A stretch of DNA of 64,000 bases, from NCBI GenBank assembly GCA_965216325.1, contig OZ244160.1, forward strand, positions 768,001-832,000, read 5' to 3'. Source of the DNA: Coraliomargarita sp. (lineage in GTDB: Bacteria > Verrucomicrobiota > Verrucomicrobiia > Opitutales > Coraliomargaritaceae). The notes beneath the pieces are model-generated. The model made no database searches. It saw nothing but the letters and a program-made list of their open reading frames with translations, and was not told the origin of the DNA. The translations under genes and the position numbers were made by a program. Below are positions 1,753 to 52,029 of this stretch, piece by piece. Each line of letters starts with the position of its first letter. Position 1 is the first letter of the stretch.

Positions 1753-2349
1753 ATGAAGAAAGCGATACTAGTGCTACCCGCGGCCTGGGCTGCGATTGCA
1801 TCCATGCTGTCCTTTACGGGCTGCAATGACTCCGAAGCCTCCGCCTCTACAGGCGTTTCCTATGAAAAACTCACCGATGCCTTGCATATGGTGCTCGAGA
1901 ATGACCGGACTGTTTACACTAAGAAGGTGGTTAACCGACTGGTGAAGGAAGATAAGGTCATCAAGGCGACTGAAGAGTGGGCTGAAGATAAGACTTTGCC
2001 ACTGCCTGCGCAGATGTTCCGCATGGGTGCTGAGTTGACTGCAAGTAAAGATGCGTGGTTCAGTTACTCGCTGCAGTCTCTGTGGCCGATTAACAAGTCC
2101 AATGCGGAAGGCCAAACCGAGGTTGAGAAGGAAGGTCTCCAGTTCGTTGCAGACAACGGTGGCACCGCTCCGTTCTACGGCGAAGAAGAACTCGGTGGTA
2201 AGAAATATTTCACAGCAGTCTATGCGGACGTCGGCGTCGCTCCCGTATGCATCAGTTGCCACAATGAGCACAAGGACAGTCCAAAGACTGACTTCAAGCT
2301 CGGCGACGTGATGGGTGGAGTCGTGATTCGTATTCCAATGGATAGCTAG
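1753..2349 (+). CDS. DUF3365/Tll0287-like heme c lipoprotein
   Basis: Signal peptide ending FTGC, LPLPAQMFR motif, CISCH, C-terminal FKLGDVMGGVVIRIP. Confidence 0.8.
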   Translation: MKKAILVLPAAWAAIASMLSFTGCNDSEASASTGVSYEKLTDALHMVLENDRTVYTKKVVNRLVKEDKVIKATEEWAEDKTLPLPAQMFRMGAELTASKDAWFSYSLQSLWPINKSNAEGQTEVEKEGLQFVADNGGTAPFYGEEELGGKKYFTAVYADVGVAPVCISCHNEHKDSPKTDFKLGDVMGGVVIRIPMDS

Positions 2350-2364
2350 CTCCTACGCTAAGCC

Positions 2365-2766
2365 GTGCGATCTTTTGTATACATAGTGATGTCCATGCTT
2401 CTCCTTGCTGCAGCCTTCAGTGGCTGTGGCAAGGAGGAGCCTAAGGGCTCTGCTGCGGAAGCGGCAAAGCCTTTTGACCCGATGGCCCTTGATTTGACCG
2501 ATCCGAATTTGATTGCGGGGCGGGCAACTTGGGTTGCGACCTGTGGCCAATGTCACGTTCGTGGTCTCGGTGGAGCGCCCATTATTGCTGACAAGGCGGC
2601 GTGGGCGCCACGAATCGCGAAGGGGAAGGGGGCACTCTATGATCATGCGATCAACGGCTTTTCCGGCCCACAAATGAATGAGATGCCACCGAAGGGTGGC
2701 TTTACTGAACTAACTGATGAAGAGGTGAAGCGAGCGGTCGATTTTGTGATCTTCGCCAGCCAATAA
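2365..2766 (+). CDS. Cytochrome c5-like lipoprotein
   Basis: CGQCH, GAP..DKAAWAPRIAKG, MPPKGG typical of c5; exact start uncertain. Confidence 0.85.
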   Translation: MRSFVYIVMSMLLLAAAFSGCGKEEPKGSAAEAAKPFDPMALDLTDPNLIAGRATWVATCGQCHVRGLGGAPIIADKAAWAPRIAKGKGALYDHAINGFSGPQMNEMPPKGGFTELTDEEVKRAVDFVIFASQ

Positions 2767-2798
2767 CCCAACCTTACTAACACACATATTTATATTCT

Positions 2799-3173
2799 AT
2801 GAGCTCAATTTACGAACGTATTGGAGGTGAGCCTGCAATTGATGCGGCTGTTGATTTGTTCTATGTCAAAGTGCTAGCGGATGACCGCATTAAGCACTTT
2901 TTTGATGGCATTCCAATGGAACGCATGCATGGCCACCAGAAGAAGTTTCTGACTATGGCACTTGGCGGCCCAAACAACTACGATGGTCGTGGTATGGCTG
3001 CCGCGCACGCTCGTTTGGTCAATGAAATGGGACTGAATGACACGCATTTTGATGCAGTGATCGAGAATCTTGGAGCGACCCTCACGGAACTGGGTGTCCC
3101 AGGTGATTTGATCGGTGAAGCTGCTGCTGTGGCAGAAAGCACTCGCGAGCAAGTGCTCGGCCGCGCCTCTTAG
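2799..3173 (+). CDS. Group I truncated hemoglobin (trHbN/GlbN-like)
   Basis: SIYERIGG, FYVKVLADD, HQKKFL, GGP..Y.GR.M..AH, HFDAV. Confidence 0.92.
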   Translation: MSSIYERIGGEPAIDAAVDLFYVKVLADDRIKHFFDGIPMERMHGHQKKFLTMALGGPNNYDGRGMAAAHARLVNEMGLNDTHFDAVIENLGATLTELGVPGDLIGEAAAVAESTREQVLGRAS

Positions 3174-3202
3174 TCGGACTCGAATCACTGAGTTTGTGCA
3201 TT

Positions 3203-3226
3203 GCTGGTGGCCTTCGGGCCACCGGC
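3203..3226 (+). other. GC-rich hairpin with C(UUCG)G tetraloop after the globin gene
   Basis: GCTGGTGGCC-TTCG-GGCCACCGGC; no U-tract, so possibly an mRNA stabiliser. Confidence 0.45.
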
Positions 3227-3315
3227 GGGGCTTTGCCATGTTTGTTGGTGGCCCGTGATTTGACCAGTGGTTGATTGTGCCACTTGGCCTAAGACCTGCT
3301 TAGTTGTTTTATTGC

Positions 3316-5298
3316 ATGGCTTCTCCTAAGAACGCATCCAAACCCAGCGCTGAGCCATTGCTGATTGTTGGCAATGGTATGGTCAGTTGGCGCTTGTGTC
3401 AGCAGTTGGTGGAGCGTGGTGTCCATGAGTCTCGACGGATTCTTGTCTTTGGTGAGGAGCCATATGCGGCATATGATCGCGTCAACCTGACTAAGTTCTT
3501 TGAACTTGATGACAGTGATGACTTGTTATTGGCATCGAAAGACTGGTATGCGCAGCATGATATAACGCTGCATACGAATCGACGTATCCTGAAGTTGGAT
3601 ACAGCTCAGAAGCTCGTGGTCGATGACTCAGGCGAAGAGCATTCCTATGGTGACTGTGTGCTGTCTACGGGAAGTAGTGCATTTGTTCCGCCCATTGAGG
3701 GCGTCGATGCCGATAATGTTTTCGTCTACAGAACGATCGAAGATATCGAGCGCATAAAGCACGCAGCGGAAACCGCTAAGTCCGGTGTTGTTATCGGGGG
3801 CGGGCTACTGGGGCTTGAGGCTGCTCAGGTTCTAAAGGATTTTGATCTGCAGACCTGCATTGTTCAGGCTGCGAATACACTAATGAGCCGTCAGTTGAAC
3901 GAGGACGGTGGTAGTTACTTGCTACGTGAAGTCGCCGAGTTGGGCATGTCGGTTCGACTGACTACCAATACGCAACGAATCGTTCCGACTGCACATGGCT
4001 TGGATTTAGAGCTGAATAAGGGTGAGCCTTTGAGTGCGGATCTCGTGGTGATTGCTGCTGGTATTAAGCCACGTGACGAGCTTGCTGTGGATGCTGGACT
4101 TTCAACGGCGACCCGAGGGGGCATTATCGTCAATAACCGCCTGCAGACAGATGATCCGAATGTCTATGCGATTGGCGAATGTGCATCGCACAAGGGTAAG
4201 GTTTATGGACTGGTTGCGCCCGGCTACGAGATGGCTGATGCACTGGCGCGCTCGCTGGCTGGCAAGAAGCGTGTGCGGTATCGTGGCAGTGACGAGTCGT
4301 GCCGACTCAAGCTACTGGGCGTTGAGGTGAGTGTCTTTGGCGATTATATGCAAGAGGGCGATTACCATGTGCATCGTGGTGAGAAGACTTATCGTTCCCT
4401 GGTGCTCAAGCGTGGCAAATTGATCGGTGCGACTGTCATTGGACCATGGGAGCAAGCTGCCGAAATCGAGCGTGCGGTTCGTGAAGAGCGTCGCATCAGT
4501 AAACGTCTGATCGCGGCTTTCGAGCGCACTGGAGATCTCTTTGCCGAACTGGCCATCGACAATGTCTTGGAGTGGTCGGACCTGACCATTGTCTGTAATT
4601 GCACTCGCACGAATTGTATTCAGTTGAAACAAGCGGTGGTTGGTGGCTGTTCATCGGTCGACGCATTGACTGAGTCTACCGGAGCCGGATCGGTCTGCGG
4701 TTCCTGTCGTCCTCAGCTGGCTCAATTTGTGGGTGACTCCTCGGCACGCTTTGTCGATACAGCTTCGCAAAAGGGGGGGCGTCTGTTGATCGTCTCTGCT
4801 ATTGTGGCTCTACTCGCTTTGGCGGCGATCTTCTTTGTGCCGGGATTACCTGCTGCGGAAAGCGTGCAGACTGGCTACTATGAATTTACCTGCCTCTGGC
4901 AGGACTCCCTGACTAAGCAAATCACTGGATTCACCATAGCCGGGCTTTCGCTGATTGCCTTGCTACTGTCTGCGCGCAAGCGCTTACGGTTTCTGAATTT
5001 TGGCAATTATGGTTTCTGGCGTGCGCTGCATTCTTGGTTAGGCGTCACGACTTTGGTTGGGGTGTTCTTGCACACGGGATTACACTTTGGAGACAATCTG
5101 AACCTCTGGCTCTTGCTGTGTTTCCTAGGGCTCAATTTGGCGGGTGGTTTGGCGGCCATTGCGGTTGCCGCGGAGCGACGCTTCGCGGGGCCAGTCGGAG
5201 GACGCATCCGCGCCTTGGCGACCAAGGCGCACATCATTTTCTTTTTGCCGTATCCTGTCCTGCTCGGCTTTCACATCGCTAAGGTCTATATTTACTGA
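3316..5298 (+). CDS. NirB-like FAD/NAD(P)H oxidoreductase with BFD-type [2Fe-2S] domain and C-terminal membrane module
   Basis: IVGNGMV, GGGLLGLEAA, YAIGECA, CNC...GAGSVCGSC; C-terminal hydrophobic helices with His; no siroheme domain. Start set at ATG 3316. Confidence 0.8.
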   Translation: MASPKNASKPSAEPLLIVGNGMVSWRLCQQLVERGVHESRRILVFGEEPYAAYDRVNLTKFFELDDSDDLLLASKDWYAQHDITLHTNRRILKLDTAQKLVVDDSGEEHSYGDCVLSTGSSAFVPPIEGVDADNVFVYRTIEDIERIKHAAETAKSGVVIGGGLLGLEAAQVLKDFDLQTCIVQAANTLMSRQLNEDGGSYLLREVAELGMSVRLTTNTQRIVPTAHGLDLELNKGEPLSADLVVIAAGIKPRDELAVDAGLSTATRGGIIVNNRLQTDDPNVYAIGECASHKGKVYGLVAPGYEMADALARSLAGKKRVRYRGSDESCRLKLLGVEVSVFGDYMQEGDYHVHRGEKTYRSLVLKRGKLIGATVIGPWEQAAEIERAVREERRISKRLIAAFERTGDLFAELAIDNVLEWSDLTIVCNCTRTNCIQLKQAVVGGCSSVDALTESTGAGSVCGSCRPQLAQFVGDSSARFVDTASQKGGRLLIVSAIVALLALAAIFFVPGLPAAESVQTGYYEFTCLWQDSLTKQITGFTIAGLSLIALLLSARKRLRFLNFGNYGFWRALHSWLGVTTLVGVFLHTGLHFGDNLNLWLLLCFLGLNLAGGLAAIAVAAERRFAGPVGGRIRALATKAHIIFFLPYPVLLGFHIAKVYIY

Positions 5299-43171: not shown

Positions 43172-44557
43172 CTACAGGGCATCCAACGGGCTGAGTATCT
43201 GATCTGTCTGGTCTTCCATCACGTGCAGATAGATCATTGTGGTCTCCACGCAGGTATGCCCGAGAAACTCTTGAACGGTTCGTATATTGGTGCCGTTTTC
43301 CAGTAGATGCGTGGCGTAGCTGTGCCGCAGCACGTGCGAGTTCGAGCGTTTGGGGATTTCAGCCTCTGCTGCTGCCCTTGAGAGCTGCTTCTGGTAGGCT
43401 CTCGGCAGAACATGATGCCGCCGCTTGGGTGCATCCGGCTCGCCCCGAGGGTCCCTCGATAGCCGGTCCATCGGAAAAAACCAAAACCACGCCCAGCTCT
43501 TTGCGGCTTTCGGCATCTTCTTACCCAATGCATTGGGCAGATAGACGCCGGGCGTATCTGCCTTGCGGTCTGCCTCGTGTAGCGGACGTATCGCCTCTAA
43601 ATGCGCTTCAAGCGACGTCTTCAGTGACTTGGGTAGTGGCACACATCGGTCCTTATTGCCCTTCGAGGCGCGTATGTAGAGTTTGTTGCGTTCCAGATCA
43701 ATGTCCTTGACCCTCAAGCGGCACAGCTCGGAGATACGTAGGCCGCAGCCATACTGTAGCCGTGCCATCAAGGCCCATTTGCCGTGCATTTTGTCGAACA
43801 GTCGCTTGATCTCACCCATCGAATAGACGACCGGGTAATACTTCTTCGGATTTGCCTTCACGTAGTCGCTGAAGTCGCCCAGCTCTAGTTTCCGCACCTC
43901 CCGTAGGAAAAATACACCTGCATTGAGTGCCTGCTTCTGTGTGCTTGCTGCGATGCCTTCTTCCACTGCCAGATAGCTGAGGAAGCGTTTCAGAGCTGCC
44001 TCATCAAAATCCTCCAAGCCATTTTTGCTGCCCAGAAAGCGCTCCATTCGCCGAATCCAGCCAAGGTAGGCCTCCTCTGTCCGGTAAGACTTCTGCTGCA
44101 CCCGCATCAAGCGCACCGTCTCCTCATACCAAGGGTCAATCGGTGCCTGCTTCTGAAGCTCTGCGACTGTGTGTGCATACTGTTGGCGGCCATCCGCAAA
44201 TTCCCGTGCTGCAGTCGCTTCCGCGGATAGGTTTACCTCTCCGCGCTCCTCCCGCGGTTTAGGCCGTGCATTCGATTGTTTGGCCGGCTGCTCCGCAACG
44301 TTCCGGCGCTTTGCTGCCTCGCGGAAAAACCAGTTCAAGCCGTCCATCCACTGTTTTACCTGCCATTCTGCGGGGTGACGCGTCTCCACTAGGTGCTCAA
44401 TGAAATCGCGCGCTGAGGTCGTCGTTGCCGGGCTCGACTCCCGCTTTAAATGCCCCAGGAACCAGTTGATAATGATGCGGTGCCGTTCACGTTCACTCTC
44501 ATGCAGCCGTGCGGATTTGAGAGCCTCGGACCAATTAGGAAATGAGATTGTCGTCAT
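43172..44557 (-). CDS. intI: Integron integrase with N-terminal extension (~461 aa)
   Basis: YRTEEAY..WI, STQKQALNA, CGLRISE, KGNKDR, integron-specific insert GVYLPNALGKK.P.A..SW.WFWFFP....SRDPR..RRHH, HVLRHS, LGH, TTMIY; divergent from cassette array. Confidence 0.95.
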   Translation of the reverse strand: MTTISFPNWSEALKSARLHESERERHRIIINWFLGHLKRESSPATTTSARDFIEHLVETRHPAEWQVKQWMDGLNWFFREAAKRRNVAEQPAKQSNARPKPREERGEVNLSAEATAAREFADGRQQYAHTVAELQKQAPIDPWYEETVRLMRVQQKSYRTEEAYLGWIRRMERFLGSKNGLEDFDEAALKRFLSYLAVEEGIAASTQKQALNAGVFFLREVRKLELGDFSDYVKANPKKYYPVVYSMGEIKRLFDKMHGKWALMARLQYGCGLRISELCRLRVKDIDLERNKLYIRASKGNKDRCVPLPKSLKTSLEAHLEAIRPLHEADRKADTPGVYLPNALGKKMPKAAKSWAWFWFFPMDRLSRDPRGEPDAPKRRHHVLPRAYQKQLSRAAAEAEIPKRSNSHVLRHSYATHLLENGTNIRTVQEFLGHTCVETTMIYLHVMEDQTDQILSPLDAL

Positions 44558-44799
44558 AACCGAAATAGTGCACGTAAGTTCACTTTTCGCAAGTGAGATC
44601 AGCAAAATACCTGAAGTTCAGATCGCAGTGGCGTAGAAGCTCGCGCGCGCGTATTCGGAGACATTCTGACACACTGACTGTCGAGTTATACTGAAACGCC
44701 GCAATCTAAGTATGCTGCAATTCGCTCATATAGAGCAATTAGCGAATTTCTTTTTATTGGTCTTGTAACGTTTTAAGGATGATGCAAATCTTTCAAAAA

Positions 44800-47507: not shown

Positions 47508-47563
<56 letters not shown>

Positions 47564-47569
<6 letters not shown>

Positions 47570-47791
47570 GAAAGAATTTTACAGTTCTGAGATCGAAGGC
47601 ATTCAGATTTGAAGGGGAAGAGAATCTAACCAGACGCTGGAAAGAAAAAAGAAGAAGAGAATTTTGTTAGACTCCACACGGCTTCGGTGAGAAAATAAAA
47701 AGAGAAGAAAAGGAAAATTTCAGAATCCAAGATTCACAGTGAGAATCACCATCACAGACAACCACAACCAACTGACTGGAATGGACACATC
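47564..47791 (+). other. Cassette 6 body: ORF-less, purine-rich
   Basis: Starts G|ATGTGT, ends with complementary ACACATC (47785-47791); no ORF of 60 aa or more. Confidence 0.65.
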
Positions 47792-47840
47792 CCTGAAGTT
47801 ATCAATCGCGCGCAGCCGCGTTGATAACTGATTGTTGAAC
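47785..47840 (-). other. Element-borne attC-like site
   Basis: Bottom strand GTTCAAC-AATC-AGTTATCAACGCG...CGCGATTGATAACT-TCAGG-G|ATGTGT. Confidence 0.7.
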
Positions 47841-48139
47841 AAGCCCGCCCTTGGATTAACGGCGCGGCTTAGTATATGCGAAACGCTTTTGGCGGCACTG
47901 CTGGAGGGGCGTTCGGATCGACGCGGCTAGGAGATTTGTAAATCTCAAGCTGCGGCAGGCATGTGGTTTTCCGGCATCATGCCGTAAAACCACATCAGCA
48001 CAGAGAGTTGGTGTGGGCGCAGCTAAATAATGGCGTTTTCGTATCCACGCTACGGATACATCCCAAAAACGGGCACAAGCAAGCACGGCCCAAATCTGAT
48101 GGGATTCGGGGCTGCGGCCTGTCTGTTGAACACGGTTGA

Positions 48140-49243
48140 TCATTTGCGGTAAAGTAAGGCGGTGCTCAGCGGTGGGCCACGGACTGGACGGAGCTTGCCG
48201 ACGCGGTGCAGCTGCCCCTCGCAACAAGGACAACGCAGAGGCTGTTCTTCAGGTAGTTGGATCGCAGGTGCACGGCCGCCGAGCAGGAAGCGCAGCCTGC
48301 GGTATTTATCCCGCGCGGCAGCTGAGAGGGTGCCATAGTGCCGCACGCGTGTCAGCCCCTTGGGCAGAACATGCAGCAGCCAGCGGCGTATCAGCTCGGC
48401 GGGCTCAAGAGCCATCAGCCTGCGCTGGCCCGTAGCCGAATCGGTCCACCATAGCCGCACACGCCCTTGCGCATCGTAACCAGCCAGACGTTCTTCACTG
48501 AAGGCGCTCTTGCCCACATACGCCGCGAGGTAGCGTAGTGCACGTTTGCCACGACCAACCGGTTGAACGTTCACGTTCCAATCCATACGCGCGAGTTGTG
48601 GATCCAGTTCAGCAGACCGGCCCGGATGTTTCTCGCGCAACGCACGCAGGAACTGGTCGCGATAGCTGCGCGCCAGCGCGGCATACGGCAACAGGTAGTT
48701 CTCGTGCTTGGCGCGGATTACTTCGCATCCGCTCTGGCTGAGTGCAGCGGCAGGCACGAGCACGTGCACATGCGGGTGATACTGCACTTGCCGTGTCCAC
48801 GTATGCAGCACCGCCACAAAGCCCGGCTCGCCACCAAAGTGCTTCGGATTGGCAAACAGTTCTTTGATCGCTCCAGAGCTGGCCGCGAACAACAACTGAT
48901 AGGCGACCCGGTCGTAGCGCAGGAAGAACCCGCGCAGTTGCTCGGGCACCGTGAAGGTCAGCATGAAGTATGGCACCGGTAAGCGGCGAGCCTGTTGGCG
49001 TGCTGACCACAGCTGCTGCGTGCGCCCTCCACAACTCGGACAGGCTCGATGGTTGCAGCTGTGATACACATAGTGCTCACGCTCGCAACTGGCACACAGG
49101 TGCACATGCCCGCCCAATCTAGACGTGCGACAACTCAAGACGGCTTCGACTGCTCGCCAGTGTGCGGCAGGGATCTTGTGTGCCCCGCCGCGCGCGCTGA
49201 CATACTCCGGCCAATGCCGCCGCAGTAGATCGGCCAGCCTCAA
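48140..49243 (-). CDS. IS91-family HUH (Y2) rolling-circle transposase
   Basis: Zn-binding CRT..LGG..C..C..SCNHRACPSC, LHTW, HPHVH (HUH), YLAAY (Y2), VRHYG, C-terminal CPCC. Confidence 0.93.
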   Translation of the reverse strand: MRLADLLRRHWPEYVSARGGAHKIPAAHWRAVEAVLSCRTSRLGGHVHLCASCEREHYVYHSCNHRACPSCGGRTQQLWSARQQARRLPVPYFMLTFTVPEQLRGFFLRYDRVAYQLLFAASSGAIKELFANPKHFGGEPGFVAVLHTWTRQVQYHPHVHVLVPAAALSQSGCEVIRAKHENYLLPYAALARSYRDQFLRALREKHPGRSAELDPQLARMDWNVNVQPVGRGKRALRYLAAYVGKSAFSEERLAGYDAQGRVRLWWTDSATGQRRLMALEPAELIRRWLLHVLPKGLTRVRHYGTLSAAARDKYRRLRFLLGGRAPAIQLPEEQPLRCPCCEGQLHRVGKLRPVRGPPLSTALLYRK

Positions 49244-50205
49244 CGCTTGCTGCGCTTCGACAAGGCCGGAGCGATCACACTGTCAAACAGTGCGCTCTGG
49301 CTCTGGCGGCCACCTTCTTCACTTAGCTCGGTTACATGCAGATACACCAGCGTGCTCTTCAGTTCCGAGTGGCCGAGATAGCGACTGACCTGACGAATCG
49401 ACACCCCGTCCTCCAGCAAATGTGTGGCAAAACTATGCCGCAAGGTATGCACCGTGAAGTGCTTGTTGATGCCACTATTGGCGCGGATGATCCGCATCGC
49501 CATCTCCAGCGCCGAGCTGCTCATCGGCTTGGCGCTGCGGTGCATCGCCTGCGCCTGAGAGATGCCTGACTGCTTCCAGCCGCGCCCCACGCCAGGGAAC
49601 AGCCAGTCCGGATTGCGGTGGCACTTATAAAATGCCCGCAACCGCTTGACCATTGCCGGGCAAATCGGCACCTCACGCGCCTTGTTGCCCTTGCCATGGC
49701 GCACGCGAACGACGCCGCGTCCAGAGTCGATATCCGTCGGCTTGAGCTGCAAGGCCTCCTGTAAACGCAAACCACAGTGATAGATCAGCGAGAGCACCGC
49801 CCGAAAGCGACCCTCATGCACACAGGCCAGCACACGCCGCACCTCGTCGCGCGTGAGCACGCTCGGCAAAGGCTCGCGCCGCTGCAGCGTGAACTCCGAC
49901 CACAGCTTCCACTCCCGGGCCAGCACATCACGGTAAAGCGTCCGAATCGGCACCAGCGCCTGATTCACCGTTGACGCGGCCAGCTTTTGGTCGTCGCGCA
50001 GGTAGATCAGATAGTCCAACACCTGACGTTCCGATAGACGGCGCAACCCCGGGCCCTTCGGTTGGTAGTGCTCGCCCAAGCGATTGACCCAATCCAGATA
50101 AGCCTTACGACTACGAGGCGAGTGAGCTTTGCTATGGACATGCGCATAGAACTGTTGATACGTTTGCGAACACTGAGTCTTTGATGATTTGGTATTTTTT
50201 TTCAT
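49240..50205 (-). CDS. Tyrosine recombinase (phage-integrase family)
   Basis: CGLRLQE, GKGNKAR, HTLRHSFATHLLE, LGH, TLVY; lacks the IntI insert; 4-bp overlap with transposase. Confidence 0.93.
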   Translation of the reverse strand: MKKNTKSSKTQCSQTYQQFYAHVHSKAHSPRSRKAYLDWVNRLGEHYQPKGPGLRRLSERQVLDYLIYLRDDQKLAASTVNQALVPIRTLYRDVLAREWKLWSEFTLQRREPLPSVLTRDEVRRVLACVHEGRFRAVLSLIYHCGLRLQEALQLKPTDIDSGRGVVRVRHGKGNKAREVPICPAMVKRLRAFYKCHRNPDWLFPGVGRGWKQSGISQAQAMHRSAKPMSSSALEMAMRIIRANSGINKHFTVHTLRHSFATHLLEDGVSIRQVSRYLGHSELKSTLVYLHVTELSEEGGRQSQSALFDSVIAPALSKRSKR

Positions 50206-50309
50206 CCGGGCAGGTTGGGGCAACTCAGCCTAGCCCGGAACTTTTGACTTTAGAAACCACCCACCAAGACGCCCAAGCACTTAACCAACAGCCGCCGCGC
50301 AGCGGCTTT

Positions 50310-50365
50310 GTTCAACCAGACAGAGTGAGCAACGGCATACGCCGCGCTCATCTTCGACGTTCACT
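50310..50365 (+). other. attC site 6 (hybrid: R'' now supplied by the element end)
   Basis: GTTCAAC-CAGACAGAGTGAGCAACGGC...GCCGCGCTCATCTTCGAC-GTTCACT; body resembles attC4 and attC7. Confidence 0.85.
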
Positions 50366-50411: not shown

Positions 50412-50633
50412 ATGAAACGCGCTACCGTATATTTTGAAGAGGACCTCCACCTGGCCCTCAAAATGAAGTCTGCTGAGATTTCAACTCCAGTGTCTGAACT
50501 AGTGAATGACGCTGTCCGTTCGGCACTGCTCGAAGACGCTGAGGACTTAGAAGCATTCAAAGAAAGAGAGAATGAACCCGTAATCGACTTTGAAGCTTTT
50601 GTTGCTGCGCTAAAAGAAGATGGAAAGCTATAA
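50412..50633 (+). CDS. Cassette 7: CopG/RHH antitoxin
   Basis: MKRATVYFEEDLH.ALK...VSELVNDAVR, acidic tail; overlaps toxin gene. Confidence 0.85.
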   Translation: MKRATVYFEEDLHLALKMKSAEISTPVSELVNDAVRSALLEDAEDLEAFKERENEPVIDFEAFVAALKEDGKL

Positions 50634-50880
50634 GATCGTCATCAAGAAATCGGCAGCGAAAGAAATCGAGAAAATCGAAAAGAAAGACCGAATTCGTATT
50701 GTTGAGAAGATTCGAACCCTCGCTCAAGACCCACACCCAGCAGGGAGTAAAAAACTTTCAGGACAAGAAAAATATAGAATCAGACAAGGCAACTACAGAA
50801 TCTTGTATCAGGTTATTGATACAAAATTAGTCATCAATGTTGTTAAAGTGGGACATCGCCGAGACGTCTACAAAAACTGA
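50620..50880 (+). CDS. Cassette 7: RelE/ParE toxin
   Basis: YKIVIKKSAAKEI, P.P.GSKKLSG, YRIRQGNYRILY, VGHRRDVY. Confidence 0.9.
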   Translation: MESYKIVIKKSAAKEIEKIEKKDRIRIVEKIRTLAQDPHPAGSKKLSGQEKYRIRQGNYRILYQVIDTKLVINVVKVGHRRDVYKN

Positions 50881-50940
50881 CGTGAACCAGTCGGAGTGAG
50901 CAACGGGACAATCGCCCCGCGCTCATCCTTTACGTTAACG
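50881..50940 (+). other. attC site 7
   Basis: CGTGAAC-CAGTCGGAGTGAGC...GCTCATCCTTTAC-GTTAACG. Confidence 0.88.
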
Positions 50941-50973
50941 CCGTCGCCACATCTCGACGATCGACGAAAGAAC

Positions 50974-51462: not shown

Positions 51463-51507
51463 TTGAAAAAAACGGAAAAAGAACTTAATTTAGACTCATT
51501 ATGAGTC
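51463..51507 (+). promoter_or_regulatory. TA cassette promoter and palindromic operator
   Basis: TTGAAA-17-TAATTT; GACTCAT-T-ATGAGTC palindrome over the start codon. Confidence 0.55.
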
Positions 51508-51752
51508 CAATTTTAAGCCCGTATTCGGCCAGTATATCAGAGCTAAAAAAGAATCCCAGCCAGCTTATAGAACAAGCTGACGGTGAAGTAGTTGCCATTC
51601 TAAACCACAATAAGCCAACAGCTTACCTAATCCCAGCAGAGACCTATGAGTGGATTAGCAACCTAATCGAAGATCAGGAACTACGAGATATTATTGAACA
51701 AAGAGAAGCAGAGAAAACACAGGCAAAGGAAATTAGCCTAGATGAGCTATAA
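51501..51752 (+). CDS. Cassette 9: Phd/YefM (StbD-like) antitoxin
   Basis: ASISELKKNP, VAILNHNKPTAYL, ISLDEL. Confidence 0.9.
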   Translation: MSPILSPYSASISELKKNPSQLIEQADGEVVAILNHNKPTAYLIPAETYEWISNLIEDQELRDIIEQREAEKTQAKEISLDEL

Positions 51753-52029
51753 ACTAAAATTCCTACCGAGTGCTCTCAAGGAATGGAATAAAATCGGATC
51801 TACTATCCGAGGGCAGCTAAAAAAGAAGCTGGAGGAGAGATTGAAGGAACCAGTAGTTCCCGGGGACCGACTTCATGGCTTTAAAAATCACTATAAGATT
51901 AAGCTTCGATCCTCCGGTTACAGATTAGTCTACGAAGTCGATGATGGAGAAATCTCAGTCATCGTTATTACCGTTGGGAAGCGAGAGCGGTCAGAAGTCT
52001 ACAGTAAGGCTGAGACGCGCAGCAAGTAA
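51742..52029 (+). CDS. Cassette 9: RelE/StbE toxin
   Basis: YKLKFLPSALKEW, YKIKLRSSGYRLVYEV, VGKRERSEVY. Confidence 0.92.
   Translation: MSYKLKFLPSALKEWNKIGSTIRGQLKKKLEERLKEPVVPGDRLHGFKNHYKIKLRSSGYRLVYEVDDGEISVIVITVGKRERSEVYSKAETRSK

Follow-up and report, generated by a model that had tools for sequence, protein, structure and literature searches.

A tyrosine recombinase-encoding IS91-family element lies at the R'' box of integron attC sites in Coraliomargarita sp.

The stretch of DNA analysed here, a 64,000-nucleotide window (positions 768,001 to 832,000) of contig OZ244160.1 from Coraliomargarita sp., contains an integron whose cassette array is interrupted by an insertion sequence (IS). 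The integron integrase (IntI) of the array is encoded on the minus strand at 43172-44605 and matches the model TIGR02249 with 339.5 bits (cut-off 265). The integrase gene is followed by a low-GC array of about nine cassettes, which lies on the plus strand and extends to about 52.0 kb. Its attC sites are chained in the usual manner, i.e. each R'' box complements the R' box that ends the preceding attC. The minus strand of 47792-50316 is a complete 2,525-bp IS91-family element with genes for a tyrosine recombinase and a Y2-HUH transposase, and it interrupts the sixth attC of the array. The GC content of the element is 0.61, compared with about 0.44 in the cassettes.

The element separates the R'' box of cassette 6 from the rest of its attC. 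The R'' box, ACACATC (47785-47791, plus strand), stands directly before the element and is the exact complement of GATGTGT, the R' box of the preceding attC at 47563-47569. The remainder of the site was recognised by alignment and with a covariance model on the plus strand at 50317-50365, and comprises the spacer, L'', the loop, L' and the R' box GTTCACT (50359-50365). Deletion of 47792-50316 joins ACACATC (47785-47791) to CAGACAGAGTGAGC..., and the product aligns over its full length with the other attC sites of the array. An earlier note on this DNA, made from the sequence alone, had proposed the ends of the element, its terminal hairpin, its gene order, this clean rejoining and the complementarity of ACACATC and GATGTGT, all of which we confirmed to the base. 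Cassette 6 itself (47570-47784) is a 215-nt A/G-rich stretch with no open reading frame (ORF) of at least 50 aa, and in it a change of the attC core is matched on both sides (GATGTGT and ACACATC). GAT/ATC replaces the canonical GTT/AAC core in several attC sites of the genome and R'' boxes of the ATC type recur (window 47563-47569 and 47785-47791; genome positions 1302444, 2276219, 2276786, 2765181 and 2848923).

On its sense (minus) strand, the element opens with a terIS-type left end (50290-50316), in which GTTGAAC (window 50316 down to 50310) is followed by a small hairpin, AGCCGC..GCGGCT (50307-50290). The oriIS-type right end (minus strand, 47792-47840) consists of GTTCAAC (47840-47834), a 4-nt spacer (AATC), a 13-bp hairpin with one extrahelical A (AGTTATCAA..TTGATAACT, 47829-47797, or 47797-47829 as read on the plus strand) and a 5-nt spacer, TCAGG (47796-47792). 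A second subterminal palindrome with 17-nt arms that are 94% complementary (47961-47995, minus strand) is located downstream of the transposase gene; comparison by eye placed a hairpin with other arm sequences at the equivalent position in relatives L114-L120. With hairpins at both ends, plus the palindrome at 47961-47995, the element has the two different ends that are characteristic of the IS91 family.

The transposase gene (48140-49243, minus strand) encodes a 367-aa Y2-HUH protein with an N-terminal zinc-binding domain (PF04986, 4.2e-43; PF14319, 5e-29), which scores 339 bits against NF033538 (cut-off 125). Its HPHVH motif and its Y238/Y242 pair are invariant in the transposases of 17 aligned relatives. 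The combination of Y2_Tnp with an N-terminal zinc-binding domain is that of the IS91 family. Directly upstream, the recombinase gene (49240-50205, minus strand) encodes 321 aa from an ATG at 50205 (PF00589, 1.4e-36; PF13495, 2.5e-16); a run of eight A residues immediately follows this ATG, and the stop codon overlaps the transposase start (TTGA). These two genes are the only ones in the element, which contains neither a DEDD transposase nor a group II intron reverse transcriptase.

The best NCBIfam match of the recombinase is the IntI model TIGR02249, with 191.9 bits and thus below the cut-off of 265, and this match covers model positions 3-180 and 216-306 only. Xer models score lower (XerA 150, XerC 142 and XerD 136 bits). 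The IntI-specific insert (model positions 181-215), a domain that reads extrahelical bases in IntI, is unmatched in the recombinases of all three copies of the element in this genome, and the pairwise alignment with the host IntI (30% identity) is gapped at this insert. The recombinase therefore belongs to the same broad clade as IntI but is not an IntI, as its TIGR02249 score falls below the cut-off and positions 181-215 are missing.

The three copies lie in the 3.06-Mb genome at 815792-818316 on the minus strand (the window copy, L001), 1299807-1302331 on the minus strand (L002) and 2841919-2844444 on the plus strand (L003), and they differ by one substitution and one single-base indel. Their ends are identical. 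The boundaries of the element are proven, because the two further copies end at the same bases in different flanks, and a target-site duplication is absent from all three. Read in the element sense, the flanks are ...gccgttgctcactctgtctg on the left and gatgtgt on the right of L001, ...gccgttgctcaatgcgtctg and gttcggt at L002, and ...gccgttgacccgcgcggctg and gttaggc at L003. In all three cases, an attC-type site is split between its spacer and the complement of its R'' box, and the element runs antisense to the cassettes. Seen from the attC, the element enters immediately behind the R'' box of the top (cassette) strand; on the bottom strand, this point is immediately 5′ of GTTRRRY. The earlier note had described an attC-targeting mobile element that inserts at the R'' box in a single orientation and causes no duplication, and the three copies agree with each part of that description. 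The indel is an extra A at element position 114 of L003, which has nine rather than eight A residues directly after the recombinase ATG, shifting the frame; this ninth A may reflect homopolymer slippage or a sequencing error.

About 21 attC-type sites were found in the genome with an nhmmer profile of the attC of the array (E ≤ 0.011), in six clusters at 0.55, 0.81, 1.30, 2.27, 2.76 and 2.84 Mb. Three IntI genes score above the curated cut-off (340-358 bits; 0.811, 2.766 and 2.854 Mb) and each adjoins an attC cluster, while the clusters at 0.55, 1.30 and 2.27 Mb have no integrase alongside. A covariance model built solely from the 18 uninterrupted attC sites of the genome scored two of the three interrupted sites as full-length attC, with 52.9 bits (L001 4017-4076) and 44.4 bits. 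Both matches read the element-terminal GTTCAAC as a substitute R''.

The earlier note had also seen full cassette architecture in the element, which could be taken to mean that the host IntI moves it, by way of its attC-like end, as a true integron cassette with the two genes as cargo. Indeed, the element begins after a G with TTGAAC, ends with R'', hairpin and G, and is found in three arrays of one genome. IntI, however, inserts cassettes between the G and the TT of R' or of attI, and the element is instead inserted at the border between R'' and the spacer of a resident attC, away from the IntI crossover in R'. In addition, it is antisense to the cassettes, both halves of the split attC are still in place, it has the full set of IS91 ends and an intact HUH transposase, and it has relatives outside arrays (L120). 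The claim of cassette architecture in the integron sense is therefore dropped, and we regard transport as an IntI cassette as barely credible.

A resemblance to attC is seen in the closed ends of the element. When joined, the ends fold with -18.9 kcal/mol (z = -5.6 compared with shuffled sequences). The fold has an outer stem of 11 bp that includes GTTCAAC/GTTGAAC, spacers of 4 and 5 unpaired nt, and an inner stem of 13 bp in which one base is extrahelical. This is the geometry of attC, as the earlier note had anticipated. Within this fold, the boundary of the element corresponds in relative position to the point of insertion in the host attC. Given the attC-like fold and this correspondence, the target is most simply read as a mimic of the closed ends of the element.

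A C that is repeated on either side allows three adjacent placements of the junction, a two-base ambiguity. Alternative boundaries, with the element starting at GAAC and the flanking trinucleotide travelling along, were considered as well; at L001 and L087, the conventional ones are favoured because R' and R'' are then complementary. Against the conventional placement, a tandem pair in genome G323 fits the alternative better. There, two copies stand in direct tandem (L101/L090, C2:876611-883119), the downstream copy opens with GATGAAC rather than GTTGAAC and the right flank opens with GATCTAC, so that it looks as if the trinucleotide had travelled with the element. Tandem copies occur in genome G100 as well.

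Sequencing runs gave further information on the element. In two isolate runs, the unitig depth of the element was 2.5-4 times that of the flanking contigs, and a marine metagenome run contained an identical element beside another flank, ending in ...GAGAAC. The circle junction and the empty allele that the earlier note had predicted did not appear in the assembled contigs of these runs, and a search of 60 other genomes of the family gave neither cassette 6 nor its empty allele.

Relatives of the element are abundant. At E ≤ 1e-20 the recombinase has more than 7,000 homologues, and most of these are on contigs about 2.5 kb long. We collected 184 loci, drawing on genomes of the same order, genome contigs and metagenomes, and 121 of the loci have the gene pair. 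When loci were found by the transposase alone and had at least 1,100 nt of upstream sequence, the recombinase gene was directly upstream in 63 of 64. One scan of genome contigs with the recombinase alignment gave only distant recombinases (≤40% identity), with a transposase neighbour at 26 of 79 loci, and a search of plasmid DNA gave no close relative. The element is an active IS91-family insertion sequence, belonging to a subgroup in which a tyrosine-recombinase gene is directly upstream of the transposase gene throughout.

The ends are conserved across relatives with 30-91% transposase identity from several phyla. The left motif, a GTTGAAC-N-AAGC(C)GC hairpin, was present in 68 of 122 related elements and persists to about 30% transposase identity; by record title, its carriers include Verrucomicrobiales, Clostridia, Endozoicomonas and Chitinophagales. 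At the right end of relatives, a GTTCAAC-like heptamer and 1-5 nt precede a hairpin whose sequence and length vary; another 4-8 nt separate this hairpin from a flank that begins G(T/A)T. Their boundaries were fixed by comparing copies, five each in genomes G057 and G100, plus pairs of metagenome contigs. At the right end of one G057 copy (L109), right-end and heptamer sequence are joined in an internal duplication of 19 nt (ACTTGATTCGTTGTCCAAC), and at L088 and L112 there are partial right-end repeats outside the element.

The relatives also mostly share the target, so that the test by which the earlier note could have failed, a comparison of ends and insertion sites among homologous recombinase-transposase pairs, came out in its favour. 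Among 64 distinct right junctions, 52 have A or G at flank position 4, 44 have G at position 5, 40 have G at position 6 and 55 have C or T at position 7; in 16 the flank is exactly GTTAGGC. These four positions were not imposed by the search for right ends and agree with the attC R-box consensus. A second measure was a cassette signature, i.e. recurrence of the reverse complement of the flank heptamer 60-2500 nt further on, which is expected in an array because the R'' of a cassette complements the R' at its other end. The signature was found in 19 of 35 testable sites (those with at least 600 nt of flank), compared with 2.6 expected by chance, and the match was usually followed by attC-like sequence. 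Third, the covariance model gave junction-spanning attC matches at 7 of 57 left junctions of relatives, five of them at E ≤ 0.01 and all on the expected strand. Six untruncated matches reach 8-9 nt into the element, and the seventh (L122) ends at the contig end. All seven loci carry the CCGC-type left end (GTTGAAC-N-AAGCCGC). The other left-end type had no match anywhere, as expected for a model built from the attC family of one genome.

These three measures replaced energy-based tests for attC at the left flanks, which had no power. A free hairpin search picked over-long structures. With a strict grammar, 20 of 60 sites reached ≤-6 kcal/mol, compared with 11.4% of 3,000 random GTT sites. When closure by AAC/GTT was required, z was ≤-2 at 17 of 60 sites, while the two certain attC sites of the genome itself reached only z = -1.0 and -1.2.

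Several observations weigh against attC targeting, or limit it. The right-end finder required G(T/A)T for single-copy elements, and flank positions 1-3 of the logo are therefore partly imposed. The cassette signature was absent at 16 of the 35 testable sites, and the insertion at L118 is 26 nt away from the nearest covariance match. In the host genome, L002 is in a truncated attC, about 110 nt from the next attC, which has R'' and L'' but no recognisable L' or R' and gives no hit with the covariance model; this may imply that a complete hairpin is not required, or that the site decayed later. An alpha/beta-proteobacterial subgroup with the same gene pair and terminal hairpin (L034, L043, L047, L049, L055, L058, L064 and L071, and L200 on Rhizobium johnstonii pRL7) has no conserved GTT before GAAC at the left end. 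In three genomes of this subgroup, similar sequence follows the right-end hairpin. Finally, L120 (71% transposase identity; about 1943-4451 of a 48-kb metagenome contig) is inside a coding region, presumably for a glycoside hydrolase, although its insertion is nevertheless directly 5′ of GTT.

Taken at their most severe, these exceptions would mean that there is no real attC specificity, that the element follows only a short GTT(N) rule and that copies survive in attC since they are harmless there. Tetranucleotide targets are used by IS91-family elements (excerpt of PMC13181058), L120 is outside any attC and several sites are without the cassette signature. We nevertheless consider this explanation highly improbable. 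From its length, and not by a count, the 3.06-Mb genome is expected to hold on the order of 10^5 GTT trinucleotides, and its three copies share one base position and one strand within sites of the attC type, of which there are about 21. Moreover, only the R'' side was used, and never the equally GTT-bearing R' side, while the unimposed flank positions 4-7 fit the R-box consensus and the cassette signature was present at 19 of 35 sites, with 2.6 expected. Comparative sequence evidence thus gives good support to the view that the GTTGAAC-ended subgroup homes to attC. This targeting is a strong preference rather than an absolute rule, given the insertion of L120 in a gene beside GTT.

How the junctions are made can be considered in the light of the IS91 family. 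There, terIS opens with the cleavage tetranucleotide GTTC (CTCG in IS91), oriIS abuts a target tetranucleotide (GTTC, CTTG or GTCC) with no duplication, and insertion proceeds through a bottom-strand single-stranded circle (excerpt of PMC13181058). IS91 and IS801 have two palindromes at oriIS, and orf121 of IS91 overlaps the transposase start and sharpens terIS recognition (same excerpt). Our element resembles IS91, IS801, IS1294 and IS1294b in its Y2-HUH transposase with a zinc-binding N-terminus. It also shares with the canonical family a distinct terIS and oriIS with subterminal palindromes, the lack of duplication and a terIS-like target tetranucleotide, and with IS91 an upstream gene that overlaps the transposase start, the small orf121 in that case (same excerpt). 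The tetranucleotide rule holds, with terIS opening GTTG and with GTTC, GTTA or GATG beside oriIS. In contrast to the canonical family, a 321-aa tyrosine recombinase takes the place of orf121, the R'' border of attC hairpins is preferred to any GTTC or CTTG, and the joined ends mimic an attC by virtue of a terminal/subterminal inverted repeat of 7 nt (GTTGAAC/GTTCAAC).

Because this layout of the ends is the ordinary one of the IS91 family (excerpt of PMC13181058), the HUH transposase alone could make the junctions. We lean slightly towards this reading, in which HUH chemistry makes the junctions and the recombinase is an accessory that recognises hairpins. The transposase would nick the antisense strand of the element at oriIS, after the flanking ...AAC; rolling-circle replication would peel this strand off up to terIS (...GTTCAAC), and the transposase would close it into a single-stranded circle. 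In this circle the ends would fold like an attC, with an outer stem of GTTCAAC/GTTGAAC, unpaired spacers of 4-5 nt and an inner stem with one extrahelical base. The same transposase would then cut a single-stranded target after ...AAC and paste the circle in. The attC top strand would present an equal geometry (R'' arm, spacer and L stem) at the same relative position, and it is for this reason that the target is seen as a mimic of the joined ends. The recombinase, in the position of orf121, would confine the reaction to attC-like hairpins and to terIS, rather than being the junction-making enzyme. HUH chemistry is favoured by the match of the layout to that of canonical IS91, IS801 and IS1294 (with a GTTN tetranucleotide at terIS), by the invariant HUH and Y2 residues, by the fold of the joined ends and by the non-attC insertion L120, which still abuts GTT.

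Two points speak against this division of labour. First, residues R147, K172, H253, R256, H279 and Y288, which we take to be the catalytic set of the recombinase (R-K-H-R-H/W-Y), are invariant or nearly so among 26 recombinase sequences, and for this reason the recombinase looks active, which would be unexpected for a pure DNA-binding accessory. Second, a cut between AA and C (IntI-like, mirrored to the top strand) would fit the junctions as well as a cut after AAC (HUH), and the sequence would look the same with either enzyme.

The same observations lend some weight to a hybrid pathway, the model of the earlier note, which we consider possible but rather unlikely. Excision of the element by IntI, also suggested in that note, may likewise occur. 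The transposase would make only the single-stranded circle, and the recombinase would exchange one strand with a folded attC, cutting RYYYAAC before its final C, with resolution by replication. This would be the mirror image of IntI, at R'' of the host attC top strand instead of R' of the bottom strand. The junctions permit such a cut, the recombinase is always present (63 of 64 loci) with its presumed catalytic residues kept, and its best family match is the integron integrase model (192 bits, compared with 142 for XerC and 136 for XerD). Furthermore, the joined ends are attC-like (R stem, spacers, L stem and extrahelical base), and donor and target would be cut at equivalent positions of two similar hairpins. 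Against the hybrid pathway, the IS91 family rule already explains the layout of ends and target without a recombinase (excerpt of PMC13181058), and L120 sits in a gene, with no attC features seen in its flank. The recombinase also lacks the IntI-specific domain (model positions 181-215), and the related subgroup with the same gene pair on rhizobial plasmids has a different left end.

The corresponding two-enzyme pathway, in which the HUH transposase copies out a single-stranded circle and an IntI-like recombinase pastes it into folded attC (top strand, R''), is thus a doubtful proposal, but one with consequences. If it were true, it would be a pathway not described for any transposon, and the abundant IS-borne recombinases would be functional cousins of the integron integrases that may mark the origin of integron hairpin recombination, or the reverse.

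The pairing of a recombinase with an IS91 transposase is, as an architecture, already known. ISfinder lists IS91-family members with an upstream tyrosine recombinase, and the public annotation of Rhizobium johnstonii pRL7 holds the same pair as 'tyrosine-type recombinase/integrase' and 'IS91 family transposase'. The attC target rule of this IS91-type subgroup, on the other hand, appears undescribed: no attC target for IS91-type elements was stated in the full-text literature that we found, with subscription-only literature, ISfinder and TnPedia outside our reach. The IS91-like ISShvi3 is described as 'adjacent to an attC site', and the excerpted text reports no IS interrupting attC (PMC9229058).

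Other elements are known to home to attC. Both the IS1111-attC group and the group IIC-attC introns enter attC close to its 5′ end, in antisense orientation relative to the cassettes (excerpt of PMC3001079), and our element resembles IS1111-attC members (ISPa21 and ISPst6) and these introns in both respects. The IS1111-attC elements differ in having a DEDD transposase of the IS110/IS1111 type, with no HUH enzyme and no tyrosine recombinase; target choice of this type is RNA-guided (excerpt of PMC11187229). The introns are retroelements (ribozyme and reverse transcriptase) with no DNA transposase. What our element has in common with integron cassettes and IntI is single-stranded DNA that folds into hairpins (R stem, unpaired spacers, L stem and extrahelical bases), a recombinase from one broad clade, and junctions next to the AAC/GTT core. 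Unlike them, the element has its crossover on the R'' side rather than in R', and its own HUH enzyme for replication and transposition. The Y1-HUH elements of IS200/IS605, which move by single-strand 'peel and paste', are similar in having an HUH enzyme that acts on single-stranded DNA and recognises hairpins near the ends, and a target that resembles an element end (excerpt of PMC5027513), but their enzyme is Y1 rather than Y2, they have no recombinase and their orientation follows the lagging-strand template. We considered whether the lagging-strand template sets the orientation of our element too and rejected this, since the copies disagree by GC skew: the attC top strand is on the lagging-strand template at L001 and on the leading-strand template at L002 and L003. 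The stretch between 1.08 and 1.78 Mb is the only one with negative GC skew; over the rest of the record, from about 1.78 Mb past its start to about 1.08 Mb, the skew is positive. The implied replichores, of about 2.36 and 0.70 Mb, are very unequal, and a problem in the assembly or a large rearrangement could be the reason.

Bacteria capture gene cassettes mainly through integrons, and two kinds of attC-homing element have been described so far; beside IS1111-attC and the group IIC-attC introns, the present element looks like a third. If so, folded attC DNA was hit upon independently by three transposition chemistries, and the hitherto unexplained recombinase of a widespread IS91 subgroup would have a testable role. 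In addition, the element would offer a natural example of recognition by DNA structure instead of sequence. IS91 relatives readily take along adjoining DNA on the terIS side, which in this case consists of the remaining part of the attC plus the cassettes downstream. This analogy suggests one-ended transposition as a route by which cassettes may be moved out of sedentary chromosomal arrays.

The remaining features concern the array downstream of the element. Rfam gave no match anywhere in the window. The cassette at 50412-50880 encodes a toxin-antitoxin pair, with an antitoxin-like ORF and a toxin of the RelE/StbE family. The last cassette before ybeY (51501-52029) encodes a Phd-family antitoxin and a RelE/StbE-family toxin. 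Between these two, right after the seventh attC, the apparent 3′ half of another attC (CGCCGTCGCCACATCTCGACGATCGACG, repeat family D1/D6) is found at 50935-50972, and may be the remnant of a lost cassette.

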